Shown: positions 5,790 to 60,324, numbered from the stretch's first letter. The stretch: 64,000 nucleotides of DNA from Candidatus Spongiisociaceae bacterium (GCA_965213975.1 OZ243930.1:756321-820320); one strand, 5' to 3'. Numbers and translations: made by a program. The notes: generated by a model not told the origin, from the letters alone.

Positions 5790-5806
5790 CCCTACTGGCA
5801 ACTGGC
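5790..5806 (+). repeat. Copy of the conserved intergenic motif CCCTACTGGCAACTGGC, formed by two GGCAACT heptad units
   Basis: Lies 72 nt upstream of the ROK kinase start, in the region divergent from hsp20. Identical 17-mer to the copy at 16516-16532. Confidence 0.6.
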
Positions 5807-5878
5807 CAGCGATCCGGGTAGCGAGCGGAAGCCGTAAGCTAGGTACCCAGTTTCGTTGTCTAATGGAGCAGACGGTCG

Positions 5879-6820
5879 ATGAGCGTTCGGGATGGATTGA
5901 CCATAGGGGTGGATCTTGGGGGGACGAAGATGGCCCTGGCCCAAATCGATGGTCGGGGCAACATCCTCGAGCATGTCACCCTGCCGCGGCCGGCCACGGC
6001 CGCGGAGATGGAGACCCTGCCAGTTGAGGCGAGCCGGAAGCTCATCACCCCGGCGGTCAGGGCTATCGGCGTAGGGGTGGCCGGGCTGGTTGACACCGAT
6101 CGTGGCGTCCTCGTTTGGGGTCCCAACGTAGAAGGGCGCGAGGTCCGCTTCCGGGATATTTTCGAAGAGGAACTGCAGCTTCCGACGGTCGTTGATAACG
6201 ACACCAACGTGGCTGGCCTTGCCGAGGCCAGGGTCGGTGCCGCCCGCGGATATCGCCATGTCTGCATGATCACCTTGGGGACCGGGATCGGCGGGGCTTG
6301 GATCATTGACGGGCGTATCTATCGGGGGCGGGGATTCGCGGGTGAGGTGGGACACATGCCGGTTGATGTCGGCGGCCCTCGCTGCACTTGCGGACAACGC
6401 GGTTGTTGGGAGACGTTTGCCTCGGGGCGGCGGCTTGACCAGATGGCGCGCGACCTGGTGGCATCTCGACCAGGTGGGTTGGTGGCCAAGCTCGCCCGGG
6501 GTGAGTCACCCCGGGGGTGGCACCTCACTCGGGCCGCTACCGAAGGCGATCCTGACGCTCTCGAGAACCTTCAGGAAATGGCTTGGTGGCTGGGGGTGGG
6601 TATAGCTGGGTTGGTGGCGGTCCTCGATCCGGAGATTGTCGTGGTTGGCGGAGGCGTGTCCCATGTGGGTGATCTGTTTCTCGATGCAGCCGCACGGTCG
6701 TTCGGTGCGGCTCTGGAGGGTGCTGACCACCGGGACCCCACTCCCATAGTGTGTGCCGGACTTCAGGAGAACGCCGGAGTCATCGGTGCCGGGCTGGTAG
6801 CGAGGGAGCGACTTCGGTGA
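5879..6820 (+). CDS. ROK-family sugar kinase (glucokinase-like)
   Basis: N-terminal ATPase motif GVDLGGTKM. ROK zinc motif HMPVDVGGPRCTCGQRGCWE. Confidence 0.85.
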   Translation: MSVRDGLTIGVDLGGTKMALAQIDGRGNILEHVTLPRPATAAEMETLPVEASRKLITPAVRAIGVGVAGLVDTDRGVLVWGPNVEGREVRFRDIFEEELQLPTVVDNDTNVAGLAEARVGAARGYRHVCMITLGTGIGGAWIIDGRIYRGRGFAGEVGHMPVDVGGPRCTCGQRGCWETFASGRRLDQMARDLVASRPGGLVAKLARGESPRGWHLTRAATEGDPDALENLQEMAWWLGVGIAGLVAVLDPEIVVVGGGVSHVGDLFLDAAARSFGAALEGADHRDPTPIVCAGLQENAGVIGAGLVARERLR

Positions 6821-7230
6821 ACCACCAAGGCTGGCGACAGGTGCTTTCCGACGAGCGGTTCCGCCTCTTCCTGAGAGAGACAGCTCGGCTGGGTCCCAAT
6901 CTTGCCAAGTTGTTAGCCCGCCTGGCCACCGATCCAAGAGTCTCCTCGCGGGCCAAGTGGTTTGCGGCCGCGGCCGCGGCATACGTCGTGCTCCCCATCG
7001 ATCTGATACCCGACTTCGTCCCTTTAGTAGGCAAGGTAGATGATCTTCTGATAGTTTCGCTGGCGCTTCGCCATGTCATCGAGGAGGCGGGGATGTCGGC
7101 GGTTCTCGAGCACTGGGATGGTCCGGACCGGGTGATCATGGTCATCGCCGACGTGGTCACCGTGGTGTCGGACACCGTCCCTCGTCCCCTTCGCTTGTTG
7201 GTGGGTCGCTATCTGCGGGCCGCCAGCTGA
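6817..7230 (+). CDS. DUF1232 (YkvA-like) membrane protein
   Basis: GTG start overlaps the ROK stop (GTGA). Conserved YVVLPIDLIPDFVPLVGKVDDLLIV motif of DUF1232. Confidence 0.6.
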   Translation: MNHQGWRQVLSDERFRLFLRETARLGPNLAKLLARLATDPRVSSRAKWFAAAAAAYVVLPIDLIPDFVPLVGKVDDLLIVSLALRHVIEEAGMSAVLEHWDGPDRVIMVIADVVTVVSDTVPRPLRLLVGRYLRAAS

Positions 7231-7275
7231 TGCCGACTCTCGGGCCGTCATGTGGGTAAGGACCCGACTGTGGCG

Positions 7276-8205
7276 ATGAGATACGCAGTTCTATTCCCGG
7301 GCCAAGGAAGTCAGGCGGTGGGGATGGGCGCTGACGTCTTCGCCGCTCATCCCGAGCGGCTGGTGGACGTGGCGGACGGGGTTCTCGGTTGGTCCCTGAG
7401 CGATCTGTGCCGGAACGGGCCTATCGAGAAGCTGACCGCAACTCGCTACGCTCAGCCCGCCCTGTTCGCCGTGGCCTACGAGCTGTGGGCTGCGCTGAGG
7501 CACCGGGTCAAGACGCTTCCGGTGGCTGCGGCCGGACACTCGTTAGGCGAGTACACCGCGTTGGCCTCCGCCGGTGCCTTCACCTTCGAGGAAGGTCTTC
7601 GCCTAGTTGATCAGCGGGCGCAGGCCATGGCCGAAGCAGTTGAAAAGGCTGAATCCGGGATGGTGGCGGTCCTGGGTATCAAGGATCAGGCTGCCGAGCG
7701 GATCGCCGCCGATCGCCGGGCTGCTGGGGGTCGTCTTTGGGTGGCCAATCTCAACGCCCCCGGGCAGGTGGTGATGGCCGGGGCCGCCGAGGATGTTGAC
7801 TGGCTCTTGGCCAACGCCCGCACCCTGGGCCTCAGGCGTGCGGTGAGGCTCGAGGTGGCGGGAGCGTTTCACACCCCGATGATGGACTCGGCGCGGGTCC
7901 GTTTCGAGCCCGTACTGAGCCAGGTCGAGATGCGGGCAACTGCCTGGCCCGTCTGGGGAAACGTTACGGCGCGCCCGGTTGAGTCGGTCGACGTCCGCCG
8001 GGTGCTGTCACGCCAGATCACCGCACCGGTCAGGTTCGGGCCGACGCTGAGAGGGATGGCCGACGAAGGCATCAACTCTTTTGTCCATATCGGGCCCGGT
8101 GCGGTCACCGCCGGGTTGGCGAAGAGGGCGGCAAGGGGATGTGTGGTCTATGTGGTGTCCACGCTGGCAGAGGCGGAGACCGTCGCTGCCGCCATCAACG
8201 GTTAG
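7276..8205 (+). CDS. fabD: Malonyl-CoA:ACP transacylase
   Basis: LFPGQGSQ, active-site GHSLGEY, and AFHTPMM. The track ORF begins at 7252. Start is preferred at MRYAVLFPG. Confidence 0.9.
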   Translation: MRYAVLFPGQGSQAVGMGADVFAAHPERLVDVADGVLGWSLSDLCRNGPIEKLTATRYAQPALFAVAYELWAALRHRVKTLPVAAAGHSLGEYTALASAGAFTFEEGLRLVDQRAQAMAEAVEKAESGMVAVLGIKDQAAERIAADRRAAGGRLWVANLNAPGQVVMAGAAEDVDWLLANARTLGLRRAVRLEVAGAFHTPMMDSARVRFEPVLSQVEMRATAWPVWGNVTARPVESVDVRRVLSRQITAPVRFGPTLRGMADEGINSFVHIGPGAVTAGLAKRAARGCVVYVVSTLAEAETVAAAING

Positions 8206-8365
8206 CCCTTGTGTCTCCACCTGAGCGCAGGGGGATGCCCACATCAAGGGTGGCTAGAGTTGCCCCTGCGGGCCTCGGCAGGTCTCCTACCCGTATCGAG
8301 TTGACGAATCCCGCTCGGTGGTAGTTCAGCCACGGTTCGTAAGGAAACGGCGAGGAGAGCGGCGG

Positions 8366-9442
8366 ATGCGGTACGCGGAGATAACCGGCTGGGGTAAGGC
8401 CCTGCCGCCCACCGTCTTGTCCAACGCCGACTTGGAGAAGCTGGTGGACACCAGCGACGACTGGATAACTACCCGCAGCGGTATCAAGGAGCGTCGCATC
8501 TCCCACGTACCGGCCAGTGATCTGGCGGAACTCGCCGCCCGTCGCGCCGTAGCCGCGGCCGGGATCGGGATGGACGACATCGATCTGGTCATCAACGCAA
8601 CTTGTACGCCGGAGTCCATCATTCCCGCCTCCGCCTCCTACGTTCAGGCCAAGCTGGGGGCCAATCGGGCCGGAGCCATGGACTTGAACGCTAATTGTTC
8701 GGGCTTCGTGTACTCCTATGTCACCGCCGATGCCTTGGTCCGGGCCGGGGCGGCGGACACCGTGCTGCTCATCGGCGTGGAGAGGCTCAGCTGGGTTCTT
8801 GACTACACCGACCGGGTTACCTGTATTTTGTTCGGGGATGGGGCAGGTGCGGTGGTTATCCAACCCACTGAGGTACCGGCCGGGGTTCTGGCCTCGGAGT
8901 TAGGAGTTGACGGTAACCGGGCTGATCTCCTGCGGGTGATCGGTGATGGAACGGTGCAGCCGGGTTCCCTAGGTATCCCACCTCGCATCACCATGGAGGG
9001 TGCTGATGTCTTCCGTCTGGCGGTCACCGCCATGTCCGATGCGTCCGAGCGGGTCGTTCGCCAAGCCGGGTGGAAGCTAGATGACATTGACTTGTTAGTG
9101 CCACACCAGGCCAACGAGCGGATCATCGGCGCGACCGCCCGACGGCTCAAGCTTTCACCGGCGCAGGTCTTTCTCAACATTCATGCCTACGGCAACACCA
9201 GCGCGGCCACCATCCCCATCGCGCTCACCGAGGCTATCGAGGTAGGACGGGTTCCTCCCCGGGCGAATCTGGTATTCGCCGCCTTCGGGGGCGGTCTCAC
9301 CTGGGCCGCCGCCGCGGTCCGATTCGGCGAGAGGATAAACCCGGTGGGCGAGGTGGACGACGAGTTCGAGCCTCCCGACCAGTCGGTTTGGGATCTGTTG
9401 TCCGCCAACTTCGAATCGTTCGGCAGGAGCACGCCATCGTGA
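8366..9442 (+). CDS. fabH: 3-oxoacyl-ACP synthase III, with a roughly 35-aa acidic C-terminal tail
   Basis: MRYAEITGWGKALPPTVLSNADLEKLVDTSDDWITTRSGIKERR with active-site Cys (ANCSGF) and the AHQANERI and AYGNTSAA motifs. GGAGAG RBS before ATG 8366. C-terminal extension EVDDEFEPPDQSVWDLLSANFESFGRSTPS. Confidence 0.9.
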   Translation: MRYAEITGWGKALPPTVLSNADLEKLVDTSDDWITTRSGIKERRISHVPASDLAELAARRAVAAAGIGMDDIDLVINATCTPESIIPASASYVQAKLGANRAGAMDLNANCSGFVYSYVTADALVRAGAADTVLLIGVERLSWVLDYTDRVTCILFGDGAGAVVIQPTEVPAGVLASELGVDGNRADLLRVIGDGTVQPGSLGIPPRITMEGADVFRLAVTAMSDASERVVRQAGWKLDDIDLLVPHQANERIIGATARRLKLSPAQVFLNIHAYGNTSAATIPIALTEAIEVGRVPPRANLVFAAFGGGLTWAAAAVRFGERINPVGEVDDEFEPPDQSVWDLLSANFESFGRSTPS

Positions 9443-10173
9443 CCCGGGTGGCGGTGGTGACCGGTGGCTCCAGAGGGATAGGTCGGGCCATCTCCCTCGC
9501 GTTGGCAGAGCGAGGTTGTCAGGTGGTCGTCAACTATCGGTCCAGAACCGAGGAGGCCGACGAGACCGTGGAGATGATCAGGGAGTCCGGGGGGTTGGCC
9601 TTTCCTCTGGGGGCGGATGTGAGCCGCGCCGAGGAAGTTACCCGCTTGTTCTCTGAGGTTGAGGACCGGCTGGGAAGACCGACAGTGCTGGTCAACAACG
9701 CTGGCACCACCGATGACGCCTTGCTGGCTCGTATGGAGGAAGAAACCTGGGATCGCCTGATCCGTATCAACCTTAAGTCCGTGTACCTATGCAGCAAGGC
9801 GGCGCTGAGGGGGATGCTCAGAGCCCGCTGGGGACGGGTGGTCTCGATCGCTTCAGTGGCCGGTCTGGTAGGCAATGCCGGACAAACCAACTATGCCGCT
9901 TCCAAAGCTGGCGTAGTCGCCTTTAGTAAGTCTCTTTCAAGGGAGGTTGGATCCCGCGGGATCACCGTCAACGTGGTCGCTCCCGGCTTCGTCCTCACCG
10001 AGCTCACCTCCCATTTGCCGGAATCCGCCATCGAACGGGTACGCTCTACCACCAGCCTACGTCGACTCGGGAAGCCCGAGGAGATCGCCGCGGCGGTGGC
10101 CTTCTTGGCCTCGCGTGAAGCGTCATATGTAACCGGGCAGGTCTTGGTAGTCGACGGCGGACTTGCCCTCTGA
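9439..10173 (+). CDS. fabG: 3-oxoacyl-ACP reductase (SDR)
   Basis: GTG start overlaps the fabH stop (GTGA). VAVVTGGSRGIG Rossmann motif. Catalytic Y-x3-K (NYAASKAG). NNAG motif. Confidence 0.9.
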   Translation: MTRVAVVTGGSRGIGRAISLALAERGCQVVVNYRSRTEEADETVEMIRESGGLAFPLGADVSRAEEVTRLFSEVEDRLGRPTVLVNNAGTTDDALLARMEEETWDRLIRINLKSVYLCSKAALRGMLRARWGRVVSIASVAGLVGNAGQTNYAASKAGVVAFSKSLSREVGSRGITVNVVAPGFVLTELTSHLPESAIERVRSTTSLRRLGKPEEIAAAVAFLASREASYVTGQVLVVDGGLAL

Positions 10174-10214
10174 GGAAACCCCTCAGGATAAGAGTCACAT
10201 CAAGGAGAGGGAAT

Positions 10215-10457
10215 ATGGATCGGTCGCAGGTTCAGGCCAAGATGCGGGATCTGCTTGTCGACGAGCTTGGGCTCGACGCGGACAAGATCACCGATGAGGC
10301 CACATTCGAGGAAGATCTCGAAGTGGATTCGTTGGGAGTGGTGGAGCTGTTGATGGCTCTTGAAGATGAGTTCGGCGTGCGGATACCTGACGAGGAGGCC
10401 GAGGACATCACCTCGGTAGGTCAGGCGGTCGACATGGTCATTGCCAAGCTGTCGTAG
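10215..10457 (+). CDS. acpP: Acyl carrier protein
   Basis: 80 aa. Phosphopantetheine attachment motif LEVDSLGVVELLMALEDEFG. Confidence 0.92.
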   Translation: MDRSQVQAKMRDLLVDELGLDADKITDEATFEEDLEVDSLGVVELLMALEDEFGVRIPDEEAEDITSVGQAVDMVIAKLS

Positions 10458-10481
10458 CGAGACCGGCGATCAATCCCTGAC

Positions 10482-11738: not shown

Positions 11739-11763
11739 GGCGAGATACACCCAGCCGGGCGGT

Positions 11764-11961: not shown

Positions 11962-11962
11962 T

Positions 11963-13002: not shown

Positions 13003-13050
13003 CCGCCTATTGTGGCGCGTAGCGCCCAGATATTGAAGCCGGAACCACCC

Positions 13051-14202: not shown

Positions 14203-14373
14203 TTGCCCCCATGGTATAGGCACCCGTCGGAAATGAGAGCGGTGCAGCAAAATGGGAGGGGAGGGGGGCCATCCACACCTCCAAGACCTCCTAAGAGCTG
14301 GCGACGGCGACCCATGGCAAGGGCGACCGGTAACTGAACAGCGCGGGCATGGGGTCTCGAAGATGACCCATAC

Positions 14374-14401
14374 GGCAACTGGCAACTGGCAACTGGCAAC
14401 C
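14374..14401 (+). repeat. Tandem heptanucleotide array (GGCAACT)x3 plus GGCAACC
   Basis: ggcaactggcaactggcaactggcaacc, in the divergent region between the histidine-phosphatase gene and the DUF3040 gene. Confidence 0.7.
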
Positions 14402-14498
14402 GGCTCACTGAGATGCGATGCGCCGGTTTAGGCCAGCGTCCGATTTCCGGCGCGTATACTGACGACGAGTAGCGGACACTGATTCGGAGCACGATTCG

Positions 14499-14831
14499 AT
14501 GCCCCTGAACGAGCGTGAGCAGCAGATCCTTGATGAGATCGAGCGCCAGTTCGAAGCCGAAGACCCAGAGTTCACCAAACGAACGTCTTCGTTGAACCGC
14601 ATACCACAGTGGTATGTACGCGTAGCTGTCGTGGGAGTTGTCATCGGGGCGGTCATGCTCCTGGCAACCTTCTCGTTCAACACCGTGTTGGCAGTTTTGG
14701 GGTTTGTCGTCTTAGTGCTGTCCACCGCCACGCTGATACGGATTCTGCGGCTGACGACCAAGGTTCCCGGCCAGCCATTGCGAGATTTTCTGCCGAGCGG
14801 TCGAAGTAGTCAGTGGCCTTTCGGGCGCTGA
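14499..14831 (+). CDS. DUF3040 family membrane protein
   Basis: MPLNEREQQILDEIERQFEAEDPEF followed by two hydrophobic helices. This is the typical actinobacterial DUF3040 architecture. Confidence 0.7.
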   Translation: MPLNEREQQILDEIERQFEAEDPEFTKRTSSLNRIPQWYVRVAVVGVVIGAVMLLATFSFNTVLAVLGFVVLVLSTATLIRILRLTTKVPGQPLRDFLPSGRSSQWPFGR

Positions 14832-14982: not shown

Positions 14983-15465
14983 TTGCATAGCTTCAATTCT
15001 GCCGAGGCATCAAAACTGACCGGTGCTACCCAGTCGCAACTCAGGTATTGGGACAAGCAGCGACTTGTCCAGCCGTCAATCCAGAGCACAGGGGGTCGTC
15101 CCGGCAAGCAACGAAAATATGCATTTCGTGATCTAGTAATCCTCAGAGTAATCGTTACCCTCAAAGACAACGGCATGTCACTCCAGCGAATAGGTCGAGC
15201 CTGGAAATATCTGCGCCGAAAGGGGGTTGATCCGGTCGAAGTGCGGTTGGTTACCGACGGTGCCTCAATATACGCCGACGAGGACGGACAGCTGGCAGAC
15301 CTCTTGGCGGAAGGGCAGATGGCATTCTTCGCCGAACTGGGTAAGTTGACCCGGCGGGTCGAAGAGGACAAGAGTCTCTTCGAGTTGAACCGGGAGCAGT
15401 TCCTAGGCCACCTTGACAAGAGCCGAGAATCGGTTCGGCTCGAGAGGGAAGCGGTCGGCACCTGA
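14983..15465 (+). CDS. MerR-family transcriptional regulator (HspR-like N-terminal HTH)
   Basis: N-terminal HTH FNSAEASKLTGATQSQLRYWDKQRLVQP. An AT-rich stretch with the palindrome AATTGcatagcttCAATT lies immediately upstream. Confidence 0.65.
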   Translation: MHSFNSAEASKLTGATQSQLRYWDKQRLVQPSIQSTGGRPGKQRKYAFRDLVILRVIVTLKDNGMSLQRIGRAWKYLRRKGVDPVEVRLVTDGASIYADEDGQLADLLAEGQMAFFAELGKLTRRVEEDKSLFELNREQFLGHLDKSRESVRLEREAVGT

Positions 15466-15478
15466 CCTCGCCCGCTTG

Positions 15479-15718
15479 ATGGGTGGGGTTTTTCTTCGAG
15501 TGGTGGTTCGTCACCCTCGACTCGCGTTAGAGGCCGCTCGCCTGGTTGTCGCAGTCTCGCCTCCGGGTTGGTTTAGGAAGGCACCCTTCCTTCCCCGTCC
15601 GGACCCGGAGTATCGGCGATGGCGGGTCATGACCGCCTATGGCCAGACGGACGCCGCCATGTCGGTAGAAGAGGCCAAAGAGTTTCTTGAATGGCGGAGG
15701 AGTCTGCGGCGGCGGTAG
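15479..15718 (+). CDS. Hypothetical small protein
   Basis: In-frame ORF after the MerR-family gene. No recognisable domain. Could be spurious. Confidence 0.25.
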   Translation: MGGVFLRVVVRHPRLALEAARLVVAVSPPGWFRKAPFLPRPDPEYRRWRVMTAYGQTDAAMSVEEAKEFLEWRRSLRRR

Positions 15719-15759: not shown

Positions 15760-16332
15760 TCAGTCGGGTTCGTTGCCCGGTTTCCACTTGATCGAGCACC
15801 CGAGAGACGGTTGTTGGGGGTTGGCCACGGGTCGGTCGGCGAGGACCGAATCGAGAGCCGCTCGTAGGTCGTTTCCGGTGACTGGTGTCCCGGATCCGGG
15901 ACGTGATGAATCGAACTGGCCGCGATAGGCCAGGGTCCGATCCGGGCCGAACAAGAAGAAGTCCGGGGTGCAGGCGGCGGTGTAGCTCTTGGCTACATCT
16001 TGGCTCTCGTCGAATAGAACCGGGAACCGATAGCCCCGCTGACGGGCGATTTCGCCGAGACGATCCGGTGCATCATCTGGGTACGTTTCGGCATCGTTGG
16101 CGCTGATTCCCACTATTCCCACATCGGCATCCTGATAATCCTCCGAGAAGCGGGCCAGCCCCTCCTGGATATGCACGACATAAGGGCAGTGGTTGCAAAG
16201 GAAGATCACCACCAGCGCCTTGCGATCGGCGAAGCTGCCGAGGGTTACTTGATCGCCGCTCACCGTATCGACCAAATCAAAGTGGGGAGCAGTAGTCCCT
16301 AGCGGCAACATGGATGAGCTAGCGGCAGGCAT
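15760..16332 (-). CDS. Thioredoxin-fold (redoxin/AhpC-TSA-like) thiol-disulfide oxidoreductase
   Basis: CxxC-type motif FLCNHCPYV within a thioredoxin-like fold pattern. Alternative start at MLPLGTT (16311). Confidence 0.65.
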   Translation of the reverse strand: MPAASSSMLPLGTTAPHFDLVDTVSGDQVTLGSFADRKALVVIFLCNHCPYVVHIQEGLARFSEDYQDADVGIVGISANDAETYPDDAPDRLGEIARQRGYRFPVLFDESQDVAKSYTAACTPDFFLFGPDRTLAYRGQFDSSRPGSGTPVTGNDLRAALDSVLADRPVANPQQPSLGCSIKWKPGNEPD

Positions 16333-16515
16333 TGATCAACCTCTTGGTAGTGGACCCTAGGCAGGCTACCAGGCACCTAGGCATAACGGCCTAGATACAA
16401 CGGCATGGCCGCGCTGGACCCCGCTAGCGGAGGAAGGAGCCGAAGAACACCCCTTAGCTACCGCCCACCCAGCACTGAACAGGGCGGGCGGGGGATTTCC
16501 GGGTCGATCCGAGGC

Positions 16516-16532
16516 CCCTACTGGCAACTGGC
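16516..16532 (+). repeat. Second copy of CCCTACTGGCAACTGGC
   Basis: Immediately abuts the stop of the HNH gene (minus strand), about 185 nt upstream of the thioredoxin-like gene. Confidence 0.6.
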
Positions 16533-17072
16533 TCAGGCCGACTGGGCTACCAGATAGGGTGCCCAATGGGGTTCCCGAGTCTTGCTCAAAGCCGCGTACA
16601 GCCATCCCTGATAGCTCGGTGTGGTCGGGGTCCTGGTTAGTTTGAGTCCCGCCTGGTCGGGTAACCGGCTTCCCTTCCTCATGTTGCAGCGTCGGCAGCA
16701 GGCCACCACGTTCTCCCAGGTGTGTGGTCCGCCCTGGGCTCGGGGGACAACATGGTCAAGGCTCTCGGCTGGGCCACGACAGTATTGGCAATGGTGGTTG
16801 TCTCGGGCGAATACCGCGGCCCGGGTAAGGGGAACGCGACGGTGGTAGGGGACCTTGACGTAGTTGCGCAGTCGAACCACCGAGGGGACCACGAATTGGC
16901 TATCAGCGCTTCTCCACATGTTCTCGGCCGCGGCGATTGTGTCCGCTTTGGCGCGCAACACCAACACCATGGCGCGTCGTGCACTCACGATTGACAGTGG
17001 CTCGTAGGTTGCGTTGAGAACCAAGGCTCGTTCAGGCACCAATCCCTCTCCTGCCCCCGGTAACCCTACCAA
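16533..17072 (-). CDS. HNH endonuclease (actinobacterial conserved family)
   Basis: LVLNATYEPLSIVS N-terminus. HNH motif DHVVPRAQGGPHTWENVVACCRRCNMRKG. Cys pair CQYC. Confidence 0.8.
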   Translation of the reverse strand: MVGLPGAGEGLVPERALVLNATYEPLSIVSARRAMVLVLRAKADTIAAAENMWRSADSQFVVPSVVRLRNYVKVPYHRRVPLTRAAVFARDNHHCQYCRGPAESLDHVVPRAQGGPHTWENVVACCRRCNMRKGSRLPDQAGLKLTRTPTTPSYQGWLYAALSKTREPHWAPYLVAQSA

Positions 17073-17109: not shown

Positions 17110-17532
17110 CTAGCTCATTTGGCTGCGGCAGGAGGCACACCTACCCACGATCTCAAGAAAGTGGCTTTCTGGCAAGAACCCTTCCTCGGTGGTAGCCGCT
17201 GTCACCAGTGAATTGATGACTTCCTCGGTTTGTTCGGATAACTCGATATCGTCGACATTCCCGCACGCCTGGCAGACCAAGTGATGATGATGGCCCACGA
17301 GCCATTCAGCCAGCTCGTAACGGACATCTCCGCCGGTGCCATGGTGAGGGACTGCGATACCCAATCCGGTGAAGGTGGCCAGTGATCGGTAGACCGTCGA
17401 CTGCGGCACCTTTCCGTCCATGTCATCGCAGAGCTCCCGCGCCGAGCGGGGACCGTCCGCATTGTGGAGTGCCCGAACCAGGGCGCGCCGTGCCTTGGTG
17501 TAGTTGGCTTCGGACTCGCTGAGGCGCAGCAT
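17110..17532 (-). CDS. Fur-family metalloregulator (Zur/FurB-like)
   Basis: HHHHLVCQACG and the C-terminal CASC zinc site. Winged-helix region VYRSLATF. The track ORF extends to 17589. Start is uncertain. Confidence 0.8.
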   Translation of the reverse strand: MLRLSESEANYTKARRALVRALHNADGPRSARELCDDMDGKVPQSTVYRSLATFTGLGIAVPHHGTGGDVRYELAEWLVGHHHHLVCQACGNVDDIELSEQTEEVINSLVTAATTEEGFLPESHFLEIVGRCASCRSQMS

Positions 17533-19692: not shown

Positions 19693-19701
19693 GCCAAACA
19701 G

Positions 19702-34376: not shown

Positions 34377-36200
34377 CTACTCGCCGTCCTTGGCTTTACC
34401 GAGGGCTCGACGGGCTTGATCATCCCTCCAAGAATGAGGTGCCGGAGGGAGCACGAATCCTTCTTCACCGTTGAGGAGGAGGAGCAGGTCGGCGGTGTGT
34501 TCAGCTCCGGCGGCATTAGGTTGAACCCAATACCCGTCCGGATCCTGGTGAACCAGGAATGCCTGCTCTGACTCGGCCTCAAAACGGTCCTTGTCGATGA
34601 ACAGGCGGGGTTTGATCACGGCGGGATCCCCGACCTCAGGGCAGAACACCATGCAGTTGCCACACTCGTTACACAGCTCGGTGAGGACCAGATATTGCTG
34701 AAGGCCGGTAGCGTCGAGTTCATCGGGGGTGGGTATACGGAAGAAGGCGTCGTTGGGGCATACCGTCACGCAGAAGTTGCAGGCAACACATCCCCACATC
34801 TTCAGCTCGTTATCGACCGACCGGGGCAGTTTGGAATTGCCTGCCAAGGTGTATTTTCGGTTGGTGAGAGGATTGTGGAGGGTGGCAACATAGGCGGCCA
34901 CCGGCCCTACTCCGCCAGCCAGTCCCGCTTTGTGGTCTTGCCACCCCGCCAGGGATACCGACCCGGCCTGCTTCATGGCATTCCAGAGTCCCTTGACCAT
35001 CGGAGCAAGGCGGCCGTAACCGCCGGGCTTGAGAAGATCCGAGCAGATGGTGATCGGGGCGAGCCCGAGCGCGGCCGCCTCCGGCAGGTTCTCCTTGGTT
35101 ATCCCCGCTGAGAAGGAAACCTGTACCGGACCGTCCTGCCCCCCGACTCTCAGCATGCCGGGTAAGGCATCGTGCAGCTCCCCGAGCAGGGTGGTGGATA
35201 CCACATGCAGCGGCGGCCCCGACAGGTACATGGTTTCGTCTGGCATGAAACCCTTGGTGTTCTCCACGACCAGGGTGTTGGTCAGCTTGATACCGAATCG
35301 CCGGCCGTGCTCGACGGCGAACCGGTTCAGCTCACCGATCAGGTCCAGCGCTCTCGGAAACTGCAGGTCGTTGTCGAAGTCCTCCCGGCGTAGCACCGTT
35401 TGCCGATAACCGAGGGTGTCGCCAACGATCTGTCCCACCCGCTCAAACCCCAGCAGGGTGGGGTTTAGCTTCACGATCACATCCAATCCGTGTCGGGTGA
35501 TGAGATGCTTGGTGATCGCTTCGATCTCGTCCGGGGGGCACCCGTGAAAGGTCGAGAGGGTTACGGTGTCGGCGATCCGGGTGGGGAAGTCCATGTCCTG
35601 GAAGGGTTCGAAGCCGCCTACGATCTGGGGTCGGAGCCGTTCTATCTCGTCGCTCGCGTCCATCATCGAGTCGATGAACCAAGCTACCTGGTCTGTGGAG
35701 ATCCCGGCTAGGTCGTAGCCAACCGATAGGTCGAAAATGTATGGCCCGGTGTCCTCACCCAGGTGCGGAGTCACCTCATCCCACCGCCGCAACATCTCAA
35801 CGATCATCGACGCCTTTACGTACTCCTCAAGGGATTGAGGGATCTTTAGTTCCTGGCTCCATTCGATGTTGTACCCGATGGTCTCCATGTCGATGCAGGG
35901 CCGGTTTATCTCCAGTTCATCGAGCACCTGGACCGTCTTGAGCTCGATCAGGCGAGACCCGGCCAGCCAGGACAGCACGATGTTCTGGGCCATCTGGCTG
36001 TGCGGGCCGGCGGCGGGGCCCACCGGAGTGGCGGCTCGCCGCCCTAGGAAGTCGATGGAAATGTCGGGTCCCTTGGAGATGTTGAGAAAGCGGGCCGTCG
36101 GCAGGTCGAAGATTCGGTTCCTTGTGGTCCACTCGTGCTCAATACGCGCCAGCAGATCGGCCAGCCCGAATGGGGTAAGCGGTACGTGGTCGCCGTTCAC
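34377..36200 (-). CDS. DHOD/DPD-like TIM-barrel oxidoreductase with two C-terminal 4Fe-4S ferredoxin motifs (PreA/YgfK-like)
   Basis: DHOD-family signatures GRRAATPVGPAAGP and ELKTV...EINRP...GYN. C-terminal CVACNFCVTVCP and CNECGNCMVFCP. Start trimmed to GTG 36200, which has an AAAGGAAA RBS, lying just after the SsnA-like stop. The track ORF runs to 36413. Confidence 0.65.
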   Translation of the reverse strand: MNGDHVPLTPFGLADLLARIEHEWTTRNRIFDLPTARFLNISKGPDISIDFLGRRAATPVGPAAGPHSQMAQNIVLSWLAGSRLIELKTVQVLDELEINRPCIDMETIGYNIEWSQELKIPQSLEEYVKASMIVEMLRRWDEVTPHLGEDTGPYIFDLSVGYDLAGISTDQVAWFIDSMMDASDEIERLRPQIVGGFEPFQDMDFPTRIADTVTLSTFHGCPPDEIEAITKHLITRHGLDVIVKLNPTLLGFERVGQIVGDTLGYRQTVLRREDFDNDLQFPRALDLIGELNRFAVEHGRRFGIKLTNTLVVENTKGFMPDETMYLSGPPLHVVSTTLLGELHDALPGMLRVGGQDGPVQVSFSAGITKENLPEAAALGLAPITICSDLLKPGGYGRLAPMVKGLWNAMKQAGSVSLAGWQDHKAGLAGGVGPVAAYVATLHNPLTNRKYTLAGNSKLPRSVDNELKMWGCVACNFCVTVCPNDAFFRIPTPDELDATGLQQYLVLTELCNECGNCMVFCPEVGDPAVIKPRLFIDKDRFEAESEQAFLVHQDPDGYWVQPNAAGAEHTADLLLLLNGEEGFVLPPAPHSWRDDQARRALGKAKDGE

Positions 36201-36243
36201 CGGTTTCCTTTCGACTCGGGCCAGATGGGTGGCGGGTTTGGTT

Positions 36244-37308
36244 TCATAGCCGGGCGTGCAGTCGGGCGGCCTGTTCCCTTGCCTTCGCCCGGATCTCGTT
36301 CGGATCCACCCTGGTTGGTTGACCGTTCTCGAAGACGGTTTCGCCGCCCACGTCAATGCGGAGCGGTCGGACCCCCGGAGTAAACGCCAGGTGCCATGGA
36401 TCCATCGGTTCATAGCTCCAGATGACTCGGTCTTCTCGGCACTCGGGCATGAGATCCCAGCCGTTCTCCAGCCAGGACCAGACGGTATCGGGGCCAGCGG
36501 TGATGTCGACCGACCGGTGGAGGGCGTACGCCAGGCGAAAGGTCTCGATCATGTTGGCACCGATACCGTCGGTGCCCAACACCACGGGGTTGTCGAAACG
36601 AGCCGGGTTGGCGTAGCCCACCGAGTTATTCAGGTTCGAGTGGGGTTGGTGCAGGACGGTACCGCGAAGCCCATGGTGGTCGGGCAGGTAGACGCAGTGG
36701 GCTAGGAGCCAGGCATCCGACGTCAACCCGGCCAGCTTGGTTTGGCAGTCTTTGTCCTCGGGCCCCTCGGCGACATGGACATGGACACCTACGTCAAGGT
36801 CCTCCGCCAGGCTGGCGGCTTCTTCCAGCGTGGATCGCTCACAGGTGAAGGCGGCGTGGATGCCCACCATGCCCTTTCCCCCTTCGCTGAGGAAGCGGCG
36901 ATTCTCCTCGAGCCCGCGTCTGGCCCCGTCAATACCGTGGCGGTCGGTGATTCCGTAGCTGGGGCGAACCCGAACTCCCACCGCCTGGCAGGCTTCCCGG
37001 ATTAAGGAGAGGGACCCCTCGATCGCGTTCGGGGACTCATGGTGGTCGACTATCCCGGTAGTACCCGACTCGAGCGCCTCCAACGCCCCCAGCATCGCCG
37101 ACCAACGGATCATTTCGGCGTCTAGAGCCAGGTCGAGACGCCACCAGATTTGTTCGAGTATCCCCAGAAAGCTGGTCGGCGTCCGCGGCGGGGCGGGCAT
37201 ACCGCGCGCCAGGGTCGAGTAGAGATGGTGGTGGCCGCACACCATCCCGGGGGTGGAGTTCATGCTTCGGGCCGGTGATGGACCGTCATGGGAAGATGGT
37301 TGCGCCAC
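36244..37308 (-). CDS. SsnA-like amidohydrolase (chlorohydrolase/aminohydrolase family), N-terminally short
   Basis: Long collinear similarity to E. coli SsnA: PGMVCGHHHLYSTLARGM...IWWRLDLALD...GTTGIVDHHESP. The GTG start overlaps the xdhD-like 3-prime end by 49 nt. Only about 20 aa precede the HxH motif, versus about 57 aa in SsnA. Confidence 0.75.
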   Translation of the reverse strand: MAQPSSHDGPSPARSMNSTPGMVCGHHHLYSTLARGMPAPPRTPTSFLGILEQIWWRLDLALDAEMIRWSAMLGALEALESGTTGIVDHHESPNAIEGSLSLIREACQAVGVRVRPSYGITDRHGIDGARRGLEENRRFLSEGGKGMVGIHAAFTCERSTLEEAASLAEDLDVGVHVHVAEGPEDKDCQTKLAGLTSDAWLLAHCVYLPDHHGLRGTVLHQPHSNLNNSVGYANPARFDNPVVLGTDGIGANMIETFRLAYALHRSVDITAGPDTVWSWLENGWDLMPECREDRVIWSYEPMDPWHLAFTPGVRPLRIDVGGETVFENGQPTRVDPNEIRAKAREQAARLHARL

Positions 37309-55588: not shown

Positions 55589-55633
55589 CGGGTCCCTCGG
55601 CCGAAACCAGTCGGTAACTACACTGTCCGCTCT

Positions 55634-56782
55634 ATGAGCACCAACATCCAACTCGATCACCAAGCCCGCCGTCGGGCCCTCGAAGCTGTCCTTCACGAGG
55701 AGGGGGTTGACCTGGTCTGGCTCCCGATCGGTGCCGATCTCGAATACCTGACCGGCATCCAGCGTCGGGTTCCGACCTTCGGGGATGTCAACTACGCGCA
55801 CGGATGGGTGGCGGGATGCTTTATCGCTCCCGGGCGCGACCCGGTGTTCATACTCCCGCGCAATTACGTGGAGTTTGACCTGCCAGAAGGGGTACCTGGG
55901 GAGGTAGTAAGCGTCAACGAGACCGACGACGGGAAGGCGATGTTCTCCCGGGTGGCCCGTTCCTTCGCCCGCCCCGAGACCTTGGCGGTGGGTGCCCGAA
56001 CCTGGGCCACTACCACGATAAACCTCCTGGAGGATCTGGCCAGCCCCCGGTTGGTGAACGGCGGCCAGCTTGTCAATCGCCTGCGGAGAATCAAGAGCCC
56101 CGAAGAGCTAGAACTGTTGCGGCAGGCTTGCCGGGTGGCTGATCAGGCCATGGAGGAGACCACCGCCCGGATTACGGTGGGCGTGAGCGAGTTGGATTTG
56201 GCCGAAGAGGTCAACTACCACCTTCTGCGGCTGGGCTCTCGCACCTGGTCGTTCGACACTGCGGTCTGGTCGATGGGTCCCGGCGACGACCGGGATGCCA
56301 ACGTCCGGCTCTCTCGGGCGGAAGTACGGGCGGGTATGGGTTTGTCCTTCGACTTTGGTGCCGTAGTACAGGGCTATTGCTCCGATTTCGGGAGGACTAT
56401 CCGGATCGGGGCACCGGACGCGGATTACCGCCGGGTGTACGAAGTGGTGATGGCGGCCCAGGCGGCGGGGATGCGGGTGGCCAAGCCCGGTGTGCTCGCC
56501 TCAGAGGTCCATAGGGTTACCCGTTCGGTGATAGTGGAAGCTGGTTTTGGCGACTGGTTCCGGCATCGCACCGGCCATTGCATCGGTCTGGACGTCCATG
56601 AGGAGCCCTTCATCTCCCCGGAGGATCACACCCCGCTGGAAGCAGGCATGACCTTCACCATCGAACCATCGGTATTCTGGCCGGGCCGGGTGGGGGTAAG
56701 GGTTGAGGACATAATCCTGTGTACCGAGGAGGGTGGGGTCAAGTTGAACGAGCATCCCACCACCCTCACCATCCGCGAGTAG
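55634..56782 (+). CDS. M24-family metallopeptidase (creatinase/Xaa-Pro peptidase-like)
   Basis: Creatinase-type N-terminal domain plus the M24 pita-bread motif HRTGHCIGLDVHEEP. Confidence 0.85.
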   Translation: MSTNIQLDHQARRRALEAVLHEEGVDLVWLPIGADLEYLTGIQRRVPTFGDVNYAHGWVAGCFIAPGRDPVFILPRNYVEFDLPEGVPGEVVSVNETDDGKAMFSRVARSFARPETLAVGARTWATTTINLLEDLASPRLVNGGQLVNRLRRIKSPEELELLRQACRVADQAMEETTARITVGVSELDLAEEVNYHLLRLGSRTWSFDTAVWSMGPGDDRDANVRLSRAEVRAGMGLSFDFGAVVQGYCSDFGRTIRIGAPDADYRRVYEVVMAAQAAGMRVAKPGVLASEVHRVTRSVIVEAGFGDWFRHRTGHCIGLDVHEEPFISPEDHTPLEAGMTFTIEPSVFWPGRVGVRVEDIILCTEEGGVKLNEHPTTLTIRE

Positions 56783-56866
56783 CGACGACGAACTTCCGTG
56801 TGGGGAGGGCTGATCTACCGTTGCCCGTGAGACGAATCAGCGACAGGCCGGACGAGAGGAGAGATG

Positions 56867-57087
56867 TGGCACAGTTCGACATCGATGCCATGCTGGAGCG
56901 ATTCAGAGACCGTGCCAAGGCAGTCCGCCGACGCCCGATTCCTCCGGTCGCCGGTGAGGGCAGGAAAGCCTTCCTGGAGGCAGCCGAGATGGACTTCACC
57001 GACTACGCCCTCATCGGAGCGGCGTCTTGGTCGTTGGAGGACGGTGAGTTGATCTTGAGGATTCCGGTGAGTGGGTCGGGTTCATGA
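56867..57087 (+). CDS. Hypothetical small protein translationally coupled to the downstream DinB_2 gene
   Basis: GTG preceded by GAGAGGAGAGAT. Its stop overlaps the next ATG (ATGA). No known domain. The track ORF extends to 56719. Confidence 0.3.
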
Positions 57088-57821
57088 CCCTCCAGAGGTG
57101 GATCAGATGGTTGCGGAGCGACGGTACCGGCATGGCGGACGCCGCGGCCGGTCTCGATCTCGACGAGAGGGTCCCGACCTGTCCCGAATGGGATGTCCGC
57201 CAACTCCTGCGGCACACGGGATGGGTTCATCGTTGGGCGAGGAAGATAGTGGGGGAGGCGTTGTCGTCTCCGCCGGATAGGGCGGCGGTGGTTCCCGGGG
57301 GCTGGCCGCCTGATGATGAGCTGCTGGGCTGGTTTGGCGAGGGCCATCACCTCCTAGTGTCGGCATTGGAGGAGGCCTCGGACGATCTGGATTGTTGGAC
57401 GATGATGGAGATACCAGAGGCGCGCTCCTTTTGGGCGCGTCGCCAAGCGCACGAGACCGCCATCCACCGGGCGGACGCCGAATCGGTGGCTGGTGCTATT
57501 ACCCCATTCTCGGCGGATCAGGCCGTCGACGGAATCGATGAGCTGTTGGTCTTCTTCATCACCCGGCCTGGCATAGGACCTCGATCCGCCCGAACCCGCC
57601 ACCTCAGGGTGGTGGCAACCGACACGGAGGACCGATGGACGGTCAGATTCGGGCCGGACAGCTCCTGGGGTAGCGTCGGCGATAACGGAAGGGCGGATTG
57701 CACGGTTTCCGGAACATCTTCGGACCTCTACCCGTACCTTTGGCATCGAGCCCAGCCCCCGGACATCGAGATCAGCGGGGATCGCGAAGTGATGCGATTC
57801 TGGGCGGATGCGTCCTTCTGA
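57084..57821 (+). CDS. DinB_2 / mycothiol-dependent maleylpyruvate-isomerase-like N-terminal domain protein
   Basis: Overall sequence pattern of the TIGR03083/MDMPI_N family (WDVRQLLRHTGW...HETAIHRADAE). The His ligands typical of the family are present. Confidence 0.5.
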   Translation: MTLQRWIRWLRSDGTGMADAAAGLDLDERVPTCPEWDVRQLLRHTGWVHRWARKIVGEALSSPPDRAAVVPGGWPPDDELLGWFGEGHHLLVSALEEASDDLDCWTMMEIPEARSFWARRQAHETAIHRADAESVAGAITPFSADQAVDGIDELLVFFITRPGIGPRSARTRHLRVVATDTEDRWTVRFGPDSSWGSVGDNGRADCTVSGTSSDLYPYLWHRAQPPDIEISGDREVMRFWADASF

Positions 57822-57948
57822 CCAGCCAGATCAGGGCCGGGGTACCCAACCTATCCCCATCGCCTTCGGTGTCCTGCCCGACCATTACCGGATCGAGGGT
57901 GATCCGGAGGGTAGGTTTGCGGTGCGAGCACCATAGCCGGGGAGGAAA

Positions 57949-58743
57949 GTGCAGCAGTATCTGAGTCTTCTGGAGGAGGTCCGGCAAACCGGTACGGTCA
58001 AGGAAGACCGTACCGGTGTCGGTACCTACAGTCTGTTCGGCAGGCAGTTACGTTTCGCCTTGGAGGACGGATTTCCTTTGGTTACTACCAAGAAGATCCA
58101 CCTGCCCTCGGTGATCCATGAGCTGCTTTGGTTCTTACGCGGGGATTCCAACATCGACTACCTCAGATCGCACGGTGTATCGATTTGGGATGAGTGGGCC
58201 CACCCGGATACCGGTGATCTGGGACCGATCTACGGGGTTCAGTGGCGGAGTTGGACCGGCGCGGACGGGCAGACCGTCGATCAGTTGGCCGACGTCGTAG
58301 GGCAAATCCGCAGCAACCCTGACTCCCGTCGCCTAGTCGTATCAGCCTGGAACGTGACCGACCTCCCCGCGATGGCCCTACCGCCATGCCATGTGCTGTT
58401 TCAGTTCTATGTCAGCGGTGGCCGGCTCAGCCTTCAGCTCTACCAGCGAAGCGCGGACATCTTCTTGGGTGTTCCCTTCAACATCGCCTCCTATGCGCTG
58501 CTGGCGTTCATGGTGGCGCAGGTGACCGGTCTTCGTCCCGGAGATTTCATCCACACCTTCGGGGATGTGCATCTATATCGGAACCATGTCAACCAAGCCG
58601 ACCGGCAGCTACAACGGACTCCTCGGCCTTTGCCGCGGCTGCGGCTAGCGCGGCACCGAGACCTGTTCTCGTATCGGTATGAGGACATAGCGGTTGTTGG
58701 GTATGACCCTCATCCTCCGATCAAGGCACCGGTGGCGGTGTGA
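57949..58743 (+). CDS. thyA: Thymidylate synthase
   Basis: Active-site PCH ([13 protein letters not shown]). Motifs RTGVGT, WNV and [19 protein letters not shown] start with a GGGGAGGAAA RBS. Confidence 0.95.
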
Positions 58744-58801
58744 CTCGAGACTACGGCAAGCTCCGCGCGTGCCCGCCTGTCATCTGCAGGGACCCCGGTC
58801 G

Positions 58802-59119
58802 GTGATCGGGTTTCTCAAGGCACTCCGGGGTCTCCTGATCTTGTTGGCCTTGCTGCTAGCGGTTGTCCCTATGGCGATGCTGATCAGCCTGCTGACCGGC
58901 GGCTCCGGGTACGGCCTTTGCCCTTACGGGGTGAGCGACTGCGAATCCACTTTTCTCACCGGACCCACCGTCGCCGCTCGGATCTTCGCGGGCCTGGTGA
59001 TCTTGGCGGCGGGTATCAGGGTCGCGTCGCGTACGATCGACCGGATCGAGCGGCGTCGGCGGAGGTCGGAGTCCTCGACTAGGGACCGGCTGGTCGGCTG
59101 GACTGAGAGACTCCGGTAA
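58802..59119 (+). CDS. Hypothetical small membrane protein
   Basis: Two predicted TM helices (LLILLALLLAVVPMAMLISLL, IFAGLVILAAGI). GTG start. No homology recognised. Confidence 0.3.
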   Translation: MIGFLKALRGLLILLALLLAVVPMAMLISLLTGGSGYGLCPYGVSDCESTFLTGPTVAARIFAGLVILAAGIRVASRTIDRIERRRRRSESSTRDRLVGWTERLR

Positions 59120-59143
59120 GGAGGCCGGTGCCGTCCGGTTGCT

Positions 59144-59629
59144 CTACTGATCCTCGGGGTTCCCGAGATCCTCCATGATCTGGTCGATGGTGTGGCTGAT
59201 CACGTACAGCCCGCGGGCGGTAACCGATACCCCCGACCCTTCCGCGTTCAATGACCCGCTGATCAGCAACCTACGGCCCCGGCGCTCCTCCACGCGACCT
59301 CGCAGGCCCAATCGATCTTCGGTCGACACCGGTTGTTTGTAGCGAAGCTCCAACCGCGCCGTCACGGACAGCACCTGATGGGTGATGATGCCTGCCCACA
59401 CCAGGATCTCGTCAAGCGCGGTGGCGGCAATTCCTCCGTGCAGGTTTCCTACCGTGCCCGCCAGGTCCGAGCGTCCCACGAAATCGGCCAACACCTCGTC
59501 GCCGTCCATCCTGAAGTTGTCGATCTGTAACCCAATAGGATTGGCTCGCCCGCACGCAAAGCAATGGTCTCCAGTGTGTTGCCGCAGAGCGTCGATGATC
59601 GGTGAGATCGACTCGACCGGTTCAACCAA
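59144..59629 (-). CDS. PaaI/4HBT-family hot-dog thioesterase
   Basis: HGG motif (VGNLHGGIAATALDE) of PaaI-type thioesterases. Confidence 0.75.
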   Translation of the reverse strand: MVEPVESISPIIDALRQHTGDHCFACGRANPIGLQIDNFRMDGDEVLADFVGRSDLAGTVGNLHGGIAATALDEILVWAGIITHQVLSVTARLELRYKQPVSTEDRLGLRGRVEERRGRRLLISGSLNAEGSGVSVTARGLYVISHTIDQIMEDLGNPEDQ

Positions 59630-60188
59630 AGCGGATCACGCCGCCTTCGACCGATTTCACGTTCACCACCGACCAAACCGGCCAACCCCGTTCCTCGATT
59701 CGGCGGCGCGCGCCCACCCACGCCTTCTCTATGGCGAAGATGGTCCCCAGCATCTCGCATCCGAGTTCTTCTACGATTTCTCCCAGCGCCAGGGCCGTTC
59801 TGCCCCTCGCCAAGAAGTCGTCAACCACGATCACCCGGGTTCGGGGCTCCAGAACCCGACGGCGGATCTCAATGGTGTACTCGAATCCCTTGGTTGCCGA
59901 GTTCACTTCCCGGCTGACAGCTTCTCGGTCACCGGGGAGTACGTATTTCTTGGCGTAGACCATCGGCACGCTCAGAACGGTGGCGGTGGCGAGGGCGGGG
60001 GCGATCCCCCCGGCTTCGGCGGTCACGATCACCTCGGGCTCCAGCGGAGCGGCGATGGTGGCTATGCGACGGCCGAACTCCTGCATGATTCGGGTGTCGA
60101 TGCGGTGGTTGAGGAAGGTATCGACACCTATGATTTCGCCGTTGACCCTTGATTGCTGCTCAACGTGGCGAACAAGATCCATTGGCAT
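59622..60188 (-). CDS. xpt: Xanthine phosphoribosyltransferase
   Basis: MDLVRHVEQQ...GVDTFLNHRID N-terminus. PRPP-binding VIVVDDFLARGRTA. Confidence 0.85.
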   Translation of the reverse strand: MPMDLVRHVEQQSRVNGEIIGVDTFLNHRIDTRIMQEFGRRIATIAAPLEPEVIVTAEAGGIAPALATATVLSVPMVYAKKYVLPGDREAVSREVNSATKGFEYTIEIRRRVLEPRTRVIVVDDFLARGRTALALGEIVEELGCEMLGTIFAIEKAWVGARRRIEERGWPVWSVVNVKSVEGGVIRFG

Positions 60189-60197
60189 ATCAGTCTA

Positions 60198-60211
60198 GTT
60201 GCCAGTTGGGA
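60198..60211 (-). repeat. Reverse-orientation copy of the motif (CCCAACTGGCAACT on the minus strand)
   Basis: Lies 10-25 nt upstream of the xpt start. A further half-site, TGGCAACT, sits on the minus strand at 60289-60296. Confidence 0.5.
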
Positions 60212-60324
60212 CTGGGGCTGTTGCGAAGTTCATGAGCCCCCTCTACTCGTGGATTCCTGGCGAGGTCGGTGGTCAGTGGACGGCAGCTAGTTGCCAAAGC
60301 AGCCCTGACCACCCGGAGTGCCAC

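Follow-up and report, generated by a model that had tools for sequence, protein, structure and literature searches.

GGCAACT heptads as the tail of a probable small dispersed repeat in the intergenic DNA of a Spongiisociaceae bacterium

A recurrent motif between genes without a common functional theme

We analyzed a recurrent motif, the 8-mer TGGCAACT together with the heptad GGCAACT, in a 64,000-nucleotide stretch of DNA (the window) from a Candidatus Spongiisociaceae bacterium (GCA_965213975.1, OZ243930.1:756321-820320), identified through its FabF relatives as a sponge-associated member of the Acidimicrobiia. Evidence on the source genome comes throughout from this 64-kb window, in which genes were called from GC content by codon position and checked against Pfam. 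The motif is found beside hsp20 and a ROK kinase gene, a histidine phosphatase gene and a DUF3040 gene, an HNH gene and an AhpC/TSA gene, and the endonuclease III gene nth and xpt. A previous inspection of the DNA, here called the sequence-only reading, had seen no common theme among the neighboring genes, and the Pfam check likewise shows none. No hidden regulon links hsp20/ROK, DUF3040, AhpC and xpt, and the motif is therefore unfit for regulon inference.

On both strands of the window TGGCAACT has seven matches against 1.03 expected, and none of 100 shuffles reached seven, which bears out the earlier estimate that roughly one copy is expected per 64 kb and at least six are present. The heptad GGCAACT was observed 16 times (expected 5.9), and the 10-mer ACTGGCAACT has five matches at four separate loci, with 0.05 expected. 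Intergenic DNA makes up 11% of the window and holds five of the six independent motif loci (p = 9e-5). The statement that all copies are intergenic was too broad, since a seventh TGGCAACT lies within a coding open reading frame (ORF), and the background that had been put at 68% GC measures 62.6%. The 17-mer CCCTACTGGCAACTGGC does occur, as had been reported, as an exact match at 5790-5806 and 16516-16532. By rough estimate, rather than computation, about 0.2-0.7 identical 17-mer pairs are expected per 64 kb, indicating that the pair alone is not rare; the significance of the motif comes from the presence of the same core at four loci.

The motif ends a 60-75 nt element

At the four main sites, designated A-D, the motif forms the 3' end of an element of approximately 60-75 nt. 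The order of its parts is a 5' block (GARCAGnGCGGG), a short variable hairpin of a G-run and a C-run (G4/C4), a CCCWAC leader, and 1 to 4.4 GGCAACT heptads. The sequence-only reading had pointed to shared flanking bases, with GTCCC preceding the ACTGG, and had suggested aligning the flanks. The flanks are indeed shared, with GTCCC present at sites A and D only and GCCCC at site C. Flank alignment also revealed what had been overlooked: each of the four sites has a further conserved block on the strand of its heptads, 44-46 nt upstream of them. The copies fall into two subfamilies, A with D and B with C. The upstream blocks of B and C are identical at 15 of 16 positions with equal spacing, are the sole exact matches of that block pattern in the window (ACTGAACAGCGCGGGC and ACTGAACAGGGCGGGC), and belong to copies that share the ending GGCTCA; A and D can be aligned over approximately 56 nt. 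A profile built from the four copies recovers exactly four full-length copies in the window. The shared 5' block and the profile matches thus identify the 60-75 nt element, in two subtypes, as the unit of repetition. The features are as follows.

5748-5806, plus strand: element A; 5' block ACGAGCAGAGCGGGG at 5748-5762, a variable middle, then leader and heptads GGTCCCTACTGGCAACTGGC at 5787-5806.
14333-14408, plus strand: element B; 5' block ACTGAACAGCGCGGGC at 14333-14348, a small hairpin GGGGTC..GACCC, then (GGCAACT)4.4 at 14374-14404, ending GGCTCA.
16474-16535, plus strand: element C; 5' block ACTGAACAGGGCGGGC at 16474-16489, a G5..C4 hairpin, then CCCTACTGGCAACTGGC at 16516-16532.
60189-60250, minus strand: element D; 5' block ACGAGTAGAGGGGGC at 60250-60236, a hairpin GGGGGCT..AGCCCC, CCCAACTGGCAACT at 60210-60197, then AGACTGAT.
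60289-60296, minus strand: half-site E; TGGCAACT(AG) in the nth/xpt spacer, where it occupies the loop of a 9-bp hairpin that closely follows the nth stop codon.
60262-60313, minus strand: post-nth hairpin; arms GGTGGTCAG and CTGACCACC at plus-strand 60268-60276 and 60305-60313, with the nth stop codon at 60325-60327.
34655-34662, minus strand: isolated TGGCAACT inside the coding ORF 34377-36413 (679 aa), without a flanking element; probably a chance occurrence.

The sites differ in their number of heptad units. E has a single unit, A, C and D have two each, of which the first kind is exact and the other degenerate, and B has 4.4. The tandem array that had been reported at 14374 is real; Tandem Repeats Finder (TRF) extends it to 14404, with three perfect GGCAACT units followed by GGCAACC and 4.4 copies of period 7 in all. 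The reverse-orientation copy near xpt is likewise present, as CCCAACTGGCAACT, with its true position (60197-60210) one base from that given before, and the half-site at 60289-60296 is confirmed as TGGCAACT on the minus strand.

Searches for a known identity of the element were negative. Rfam gave no match at gathering thresholds in the whole window and nothing credible at E <= 1 around the sites, no tRNA genes were found, and consensus scans for sigma-70-like promoters and intrinsic terminators found none at the motif sites. The predicted RNA folds of the four elements are neither significant nor shared (z -1.5 to +0.9), and their consensus structure amounts to -4 kcal/mol and 10 pairs with little covariation. 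Nothing relevant was found in the literature for GGCAACT dimer strings in a bacterial context or for repeats in sponge Acidimicrobiia. Resemblances to integron attC core sites, to Chi-like CTGGTGG and to IS630/Tc1 CAGT ends were considered and dropped as unsupported.

A REP/REPIN- or MITE-like mobile element that depends on a transposase acting in trans (such as a RAYT or an IS630-like enzyme), and whose end includes the heptads, might also account for what is seen here, namely four ~60-nt copies that are unlinked, divide into two subfamilies and share identity beyond a short motif. A central GC hairpin, GTAG-like tetranucleotides on the reverse strand, the CAGT...ACTG end polarity of paired arrays in other genomes and the presence of copies where relatives have compact spacers (both described below) are consistent with this possibility. 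However, the hairpins are not significant, and neither a stable palindrome, a terminal inverted repeat, a target-site duplication nor similarity past approximately 60 nt was found at the four copies, which are few to judge by. No transposase was identified among the 20 of approximately 65 window ORFs that were scanned against Pfam, and paired arrays in other genomes enclose spacers that show no sequence relationship to one another. We therefore consider a mobile element of this kind rather improbable.

Gene context of the individual sites

Element A lies in the divergent spacer between hsp20 (minus strand) and the ROK kinase gene (plus strand), 73 nt upstream of the ROK start at 5879. Element B occupies the divergent spacer between the histidine phosphatase gene (minus strand, start at ~14203 as judged by alignment to relatives) and the DUF3040 gene (plus strand, start at 14499), upstream of a conserved DUF3040 -10 box, GCGTATACTG (~14453-14462). 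Element C is located between two minus-strand genes, HNH and AhpC/TSA. It is antisense to the latter, 142 nt upstream of its start at 16332, and runs straight into the HNH stop codon (TCA, 16533-16535), so that on the HNH sense strand GCCAGTTGCCAGTAGGG stands immediately 3' of the stop. Element D is found in the spacer between nth and xpt (both minus strand) and ends 2-9 nt before the xpt ATG at 60188, with no Shine-Dalgarno-like sequence between the element and the start codon. Hand-read -10/-35 boxes or a leaderless layout at xpt gave no fit. The sequence-only reading had described the copies as promoter-proximal, which applies loosely; site C adjoins a stop codon and site D lies directly in front of a start codon.

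The nth/xpt spacer also carries the post-nth hairpin, whose arms are of the CAGTGGT/CCACTGA heptad type that is arrayed in two related genomes (L001 and L002); the 3' arm extends as a two-unit array, TCCACTGACCACCGACC. A plus-strand ORF at 60199-61116 (305 aa, without a Pfam match) shadows the real nth gene (60325-61173, minus strand), and the longest-ORF map is therefore misleading at that spot. A canonical intrinsic terminator (11-bp stem and T-run) was noted at 15464-15490 (plus strand) after a MerR-family gene, where an overlapping 102-aa ORF (15413-15718) is probably spurious.

The position of the 14374 array invites the idea of a contingency locus, in which gain or loss of 7 bp would switch the divergent histidine phosphatase and DUF3040 promoters. 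This is a true array of 4.4 copies between divergent genes, and the conserved -10 box of DUF3040 follows ~50-80 nt downstream of it. It lies, however, upstream of the -35 region and outside the promoter spacer, its neighbor genes are housekeeping-like, and the other four sites are too short for efficient slippage. We find phase variation highly unlikely here.

The element is absent from orthologous spacers of related genomes

The nearest species-level relatives of the host are Candidatus Spongiisocius and other Spongiisociaceae metagenome-assembled genomes (MAGs), with FabF identities of only 78-85%. At the AhpC protein, the nearest relatives are 77-78% identical. We compared the window with eight same-family loci (L001-L004 and L203-L206), for three of which (L001-L003) the syntenic regions span 21 kb. 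Synteny is kept, with DNA identity at ~66-77%. The sequence-only reading had proposed conservation in related genomes as a check; none of the eight loci carries a GGCAACT element in the spacers orthologous to those of A, B and C. The composite element was not convincingly found in any other fetched locus, from relatives or metagenomes, where regular-expression and nhmmer searches returned the heptad part only.

As a positive control for conservation we used GCGTATACTG (window 14453-14462), which lies ~35-45 nt upstream of the DUF3040 start and is invariant in L001 (~14070), L002 (~14213), L003 (~15375), L004 (~15083), L203, L204 and L206. It is likely the -10 region of DUF3040. Upstream of hsp20 (minus strand), an inverted repeat at window 5622-5660, reading GAAATCTSAG-N(~11)-TTAGATT on the sense strand, is also conserved, in L001 (~5155-5200), L002 (~5160-5212) and L003 (~1925-1968). 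It resembles an operator or RNA element serving the heat-shock gene and presumably matches neither CIRCE nor HAIR. Genuine control sequences, such as the inverted repeat of hsp20 and the -10 box of DUF3040, can thus be recognized at this divergence, and the motif does not behave as one of them.

These results bear directly on the proposal that the heptads are iterated sites for a direct-repeat regulator, that is, operators of one transcription factor co-regulating the ROK kinase, DUF3040, AhpC/HNH and xpt genes. In its favor, the same 10-14-mer stands in four spacers beside gene starts, and three of the four copies face the downstream gene. The sites are nevertheless missing from orthologous spacers in which regulatory sequences persist, and a direct period of 7 bp, rather than ~10-11 bp, is not helical, places successive units on different faces of the helix and has no dyad symmetry. 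In addition, site C adjoins a stop codon, no functional theme unites the flanking genes, and in unrelated taxa GGCAACT arrays of 10-30 copies (up to ~33) often follow stop codons or even lie inside a coding region. Shared operators are thus a very improbable explanation.

Element C looks like an insertion because the HNH-AhpC spacer is compact in two relatives, at 28 nt in L203 and L206 versus 200 nt in the window. In L003 the orthologous spacer is filled by a different array, (TCACCAT)12.4 at 17360-17447. The presence of a different heptad array in the same spacer of another genus suggests hotspot spacers or evolution of the unit in place.

Many period-7 arrays with related units are found at other spacers of L001-L003, L203 and L204. 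In L002, (GGCCAGT)5 and (CCACTGA)5 flank the spacer after fabF, and (GTGGTCA)3.4 occurs with (CCACTGG)4.7; L003 carries (GTGGTGA)8 with (CACCACT)3, L203 has (GGTAGTT)5/(AACTACG)2.4 after the AhpC stop codon, and L204 has (AGTGGCC)4/(CACTGGC)2.7 between two stop codons. Immediately 3' of the fabF stop codon, where the genes are convergent, the inverted arrays (L003 11236-11322, L002 11249-11395) are predicted to pair into a long hairpin, with -46 kcal/mol for L003. The equivalent spacer in the window has 25 nt only and no array. The leader and heptads of the window can be aligned to arrays at other loci of L001 and L002, as with GGGGTC-CCTACTGGCAACTGGC of element A against GGGGTCACCCACTGGCCACTGGC of L002. 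Judged by this alignment, the leader and heptads of the window are homologous to the (GGCCACT)n arrays of relatives, which share the leader. This homology, with the copy length of ~60-75 nt, favors the small dispersed repeat family that the sequence-only reading had listed among its possibilities. Overall, the heptad arrays turn over quickly between genomes in position, unit and length.

GGCAACT arrays in metagenomes follow a polarity rule

Exact (GGCAACT)3 was present in at least 120 metagenome contigs. These came from more than 60 samples and covered GC contents of 33-72%, with array sizes of 3 to ~33 copies. One contig of 36% GC belongs to the Bacteroidia, its FtcD being 86% identical to that of Panacibacter MAGs. 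In most of these contigs TRF detects several arrays of period 7 whose units are related (AACTGAC, AAACTGG and AACTGAG, for example). Among repeat periods that are not multiples of 3, period 7 prevails in a set of 80 diverse genomic loci.

Neighboring arrays formed 62 inverted pairs, of the type (CAGTTGC)n...(GCAACTG)n, versus 2 direct pairs, and the first arm carried CAGT in 41 cases and ACTG in 3 (p = 2e-9). With ORF criteria applied identically to both array orientations, a stop codon was followed within 15 nt by (AGTTGCC)n in 28 cases and by (GGCAACT)n in 2 (p = 9e-7), while (GGCAACT)n preceded a start codon in 20 cases and the opposite orientation in 8 (p = 0.04). The typical layout is stop-(CAGTTGC)n-spacer-(GCAACTG)n-CTT-ATG, without a Shine-Dalgarno sequence. 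Crude counts of spacer context gave 41 co-directional, 24 convergent and 6 divergent spacers. These counts are approximate because gene calls were heuristic, which leaves the orientation asymmetry unaffected. Within the window, C (at a stop codon) and D (before a start codon) conform to the rule, A and B have the expected orientation without being flush with a gene, and E is an exception.

Two side observations were made on these contigs. In the soil contig L116 (1885-7923), seven successive intergenic spacers are each flanked by an inverted heptad pair, with units CAGTTCC, CAGCTTC (three spacers), CAGTTTC (two spacers) and GGCTTAG; the arms match across the spacer and not across the gene. In the Panacibacter-like Bacteroidia contig L133 (8900-9050, corresponding to ~2700-2830 in L201 and L202), three consecutive arrays (TCCGAAA, CAGAACT and CTGGCAA types) lie inside the called ORF of hutI (imidazolonepropionase). 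They appear as an in-frame insertion of ~40 aa ahead of the metal-binding HTH motif region, with no difference among three near-identical strains. Either the coding sequence tolerates the insertion or the start was mis-called.

The polarity raises the possibility, which we hold tentatively and regard as unlikely, that the repeats act in cis as RNA elements of untranslated regions (UTRs). Forward (GGCAACU)n would be an unstructured C/A-rich leader recruiting ribosomes or an RNA-binding protein (S1, Csp or CsrA-like), and reverse or paired arrays would form hairpins that stabilize, terminate or process mRNA. Consistent with this, paired arrays have predicted folds of -46 to -133 kcal/mol and a solo (GGCAACU)4 is nearly unstructured (-3.9 kcal/mol). 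The excess of inverted pairs, the placement of arrays after stop and before start codons, element D close to the xpt ATG without a Shine-Dalgarno-like sequence and element C beginning at the HNH stop codon would also agree, and a similar placement and idea have been put forward for TAACTGA repeats (PMC4679880). The window elements themselves, however, lack both a significant or shared fold and conservation support in the window, and A and B lie 73-90 nt from start codons. Mismatches between paired arms are often not G-U compatible; the few informative pairs for wobble asymmetry include several of this kind. Moreover, the polarity is symmetric about the spacer regardless of gene orientation and therefore need not be an RNA-sense rule.

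A broader possibility, for which we see a small chance, is that CAGT/ACTG heptad arrays (GGCAACT, GGCCACT, CCACTGA and probably TAACTGA and the short tandemly repeated repetitive sequences, STRRs) constitute one cross-phylum system rather than independent products of slippage. Such a system would have the fixed polarity (CAGTnnn)n...(nnnACTG)n, would flank whole spacers within a few bases of stop and start codons in any gene orientation, and would range over Acidimicrobiia, Bacteroidia and many soil and sediment bacteria. If so, it would imply a dedicated mechanism, namely an enzyme or mobile element that inserts or extends arrays at gene boundaries, or alternatively a conserved RNA-level function by which a gene's stop codon is zipped to the start of the following gene. 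The 60-nt element of the window (CAG-block...ACTGG heptads) would then be a decayed example.

A probable lineage-specific dispersed repeat with a heptanucleotide tail

Heptanucleotide repeats have been known in bacteria since 1990 and have been recognized as the most abundant class of long simple sequence repeats (SSRs) since 2007. To our knowledge there is no agreed function or origin for them. The explanation that we consider probable is that the sites are copies of a small, lineage-specific, non-coding dispersed repeat that ends in a heptanucleotide SSR. This tail is a local member of a class already known from bacteria, the intergenic heptanucleotides (STRR, long SSR or TAACTGA-like). The window contains head-to-tail 7-nt units (14374-14404), non-coding loci and several arrays with related units, the related-unit loci being the four with ACTGGCAACT and the CCACTGA-type pair after nth. 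Slipped-strand variability, which had also been suggested for the 14374 array, would fit the class to which that array belongs.

We envisage that a duplicative process, which may have been transposition-like movement, recombination or template switching, placed copies of the element at new intergenic positions. Slipped-strand mispairing would then have altered the heptad number, giving one unit at E, two at A, C and D, and 4.4 at B. Copies would survive where harm is small, in untranslated DNA beside genes, and any effect on expression would be a local, cis-acting by-product. At xpt, an unstructured C/A-rich leader might take the place of a Shine-Dalgarno sequence, and at HNH and nth the element could serve as a 3'-UTR hairpin or tail. 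On this account the element would not be a shared regulatory signal.

Several points weigh against this explanation. The window has a single true tandem array in 64 kb, and A, C and D each combine an exact unit with a degenerate one, so that the term SSR suits the family better than these copies. The shared 5' block could not be produced by heptad slippage, and a copying mechanism must therefore be assumed. Three of the four elements (A, B and D) are oriented toward the downstream gene. The near-identical Bacteroidia contigs L133, L201 and L202, from three strains only, show no difference in copy number. Finally, strict polarity and gene-boundary placement in other lineages suggest selection or a dedicated mechanism rather than neutral junk.

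The 60-75 nt element is a fresh member of the already described class of heptanucleotide and small dispersed repeats. Its value lies partly in making the question of function more testable, with one exact unit across organisms of 33-72% GC, a strict orientation rule and arrays flush with stop and start codons. The strict polarity and gene-boundary placement across lineages are the most interesting remaining lead. There are also practical consequences, as gene callers translate the arrays into spurious N-terminal extensions or insertions (seen for hutI in a Bacteroidia contig), and the arrays are likely hotspots for assembly and indel errors.

Comparison with known repeat systems

STRR units of Calothrix and Nostoc include CCCCAGT, TTGGTCA and CAACAGT. 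The arrays described here resemble long SSRs and STRRs in their period of 7, intergenic position, many arrays per genome with related units, sporadic phylogeny including Actinobacteria, rapid turnover and the presence of CAGT or ACTG in the units. In contrast, the window has one real array, and in its other copies the heptads are tails of 1 or 2 units on a longer element. In many prokaryotes, Actinobacteria among them, no long SSRs are more abundant than heptanucleotides, and polymerase slippage was proposed as their origin (Mrazek 2007, as cited in PMC4679880 and PMC4692102). Long heptanucleotide SSRs are intergenic and vary between close species (PMC4679880, PMC4692102), and three tandem heptanucleotides have been described in Calothrix (PMC4692102).

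The closest described parallel comes from the TAACTGA heptamers of marine Beggiatoaceae, Cyanobacteria and Bacteroidetes, which are intergenic in 2 to 43 tandem copies (MacGregor 2015, PMC4679880). They stand in forward orientation just upstream of start codons, at the position of the ribosome-binding site, and were proposed to be a binding platform for a translational regulator (PMC4679880). The two repeats share an AACTG core, with five of seven positions identical (CAACTGG vs TAACTGA), and the same polarity to start codons. In both, solo arrays are unstructured, distribution is scattered across phyla and downstream genes lack a common function. The unit here is nevertheless GGCAACT (CAACTGG register), differing at two of seven positions, in a high-GC Acidimicrobiia host. 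Only one of the five window sites (D, at xpt) adjoins a start codon; A and B are 73-90 nt away from theirs, and C is next to a stop codon. The window copies bear an extra conserved 5' block and leader. The GGCAACT pairs, moreover, are inverted in 62 cases vs 2, whereas only one indirect repeat was reported for a Beggiatoaceae genome (PMC4679880).

The G-rich heptamers GGGAATC of Xanthomonas and GGGGAYT of Nostoc form ~180 intergenic arrays per genome, typically of ~4 units (Rehm et al. 2015, PMC4692102). Some occur as inverted pairs between convergent genes, and array length differs between sister species at the same spacers (PMC4692102). Intergenic heptamer arrays and inverted pairs are thus common to both systems, but the consensus differs and those units can form G-quadruplexes, which GGCAACT cannot. 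With REP/REPIN elements (PMC3116915) and small dispersed repeats, the present repeats have in common that they are short, extragenic, multi-copy elements with a hairpin, mostly between co-directional or convergent genes. They differ in that stems arise from tandem heptads rather than a fixed palindrome, in that the window copies have no significant hairpin, and in having no known RAYT partner.

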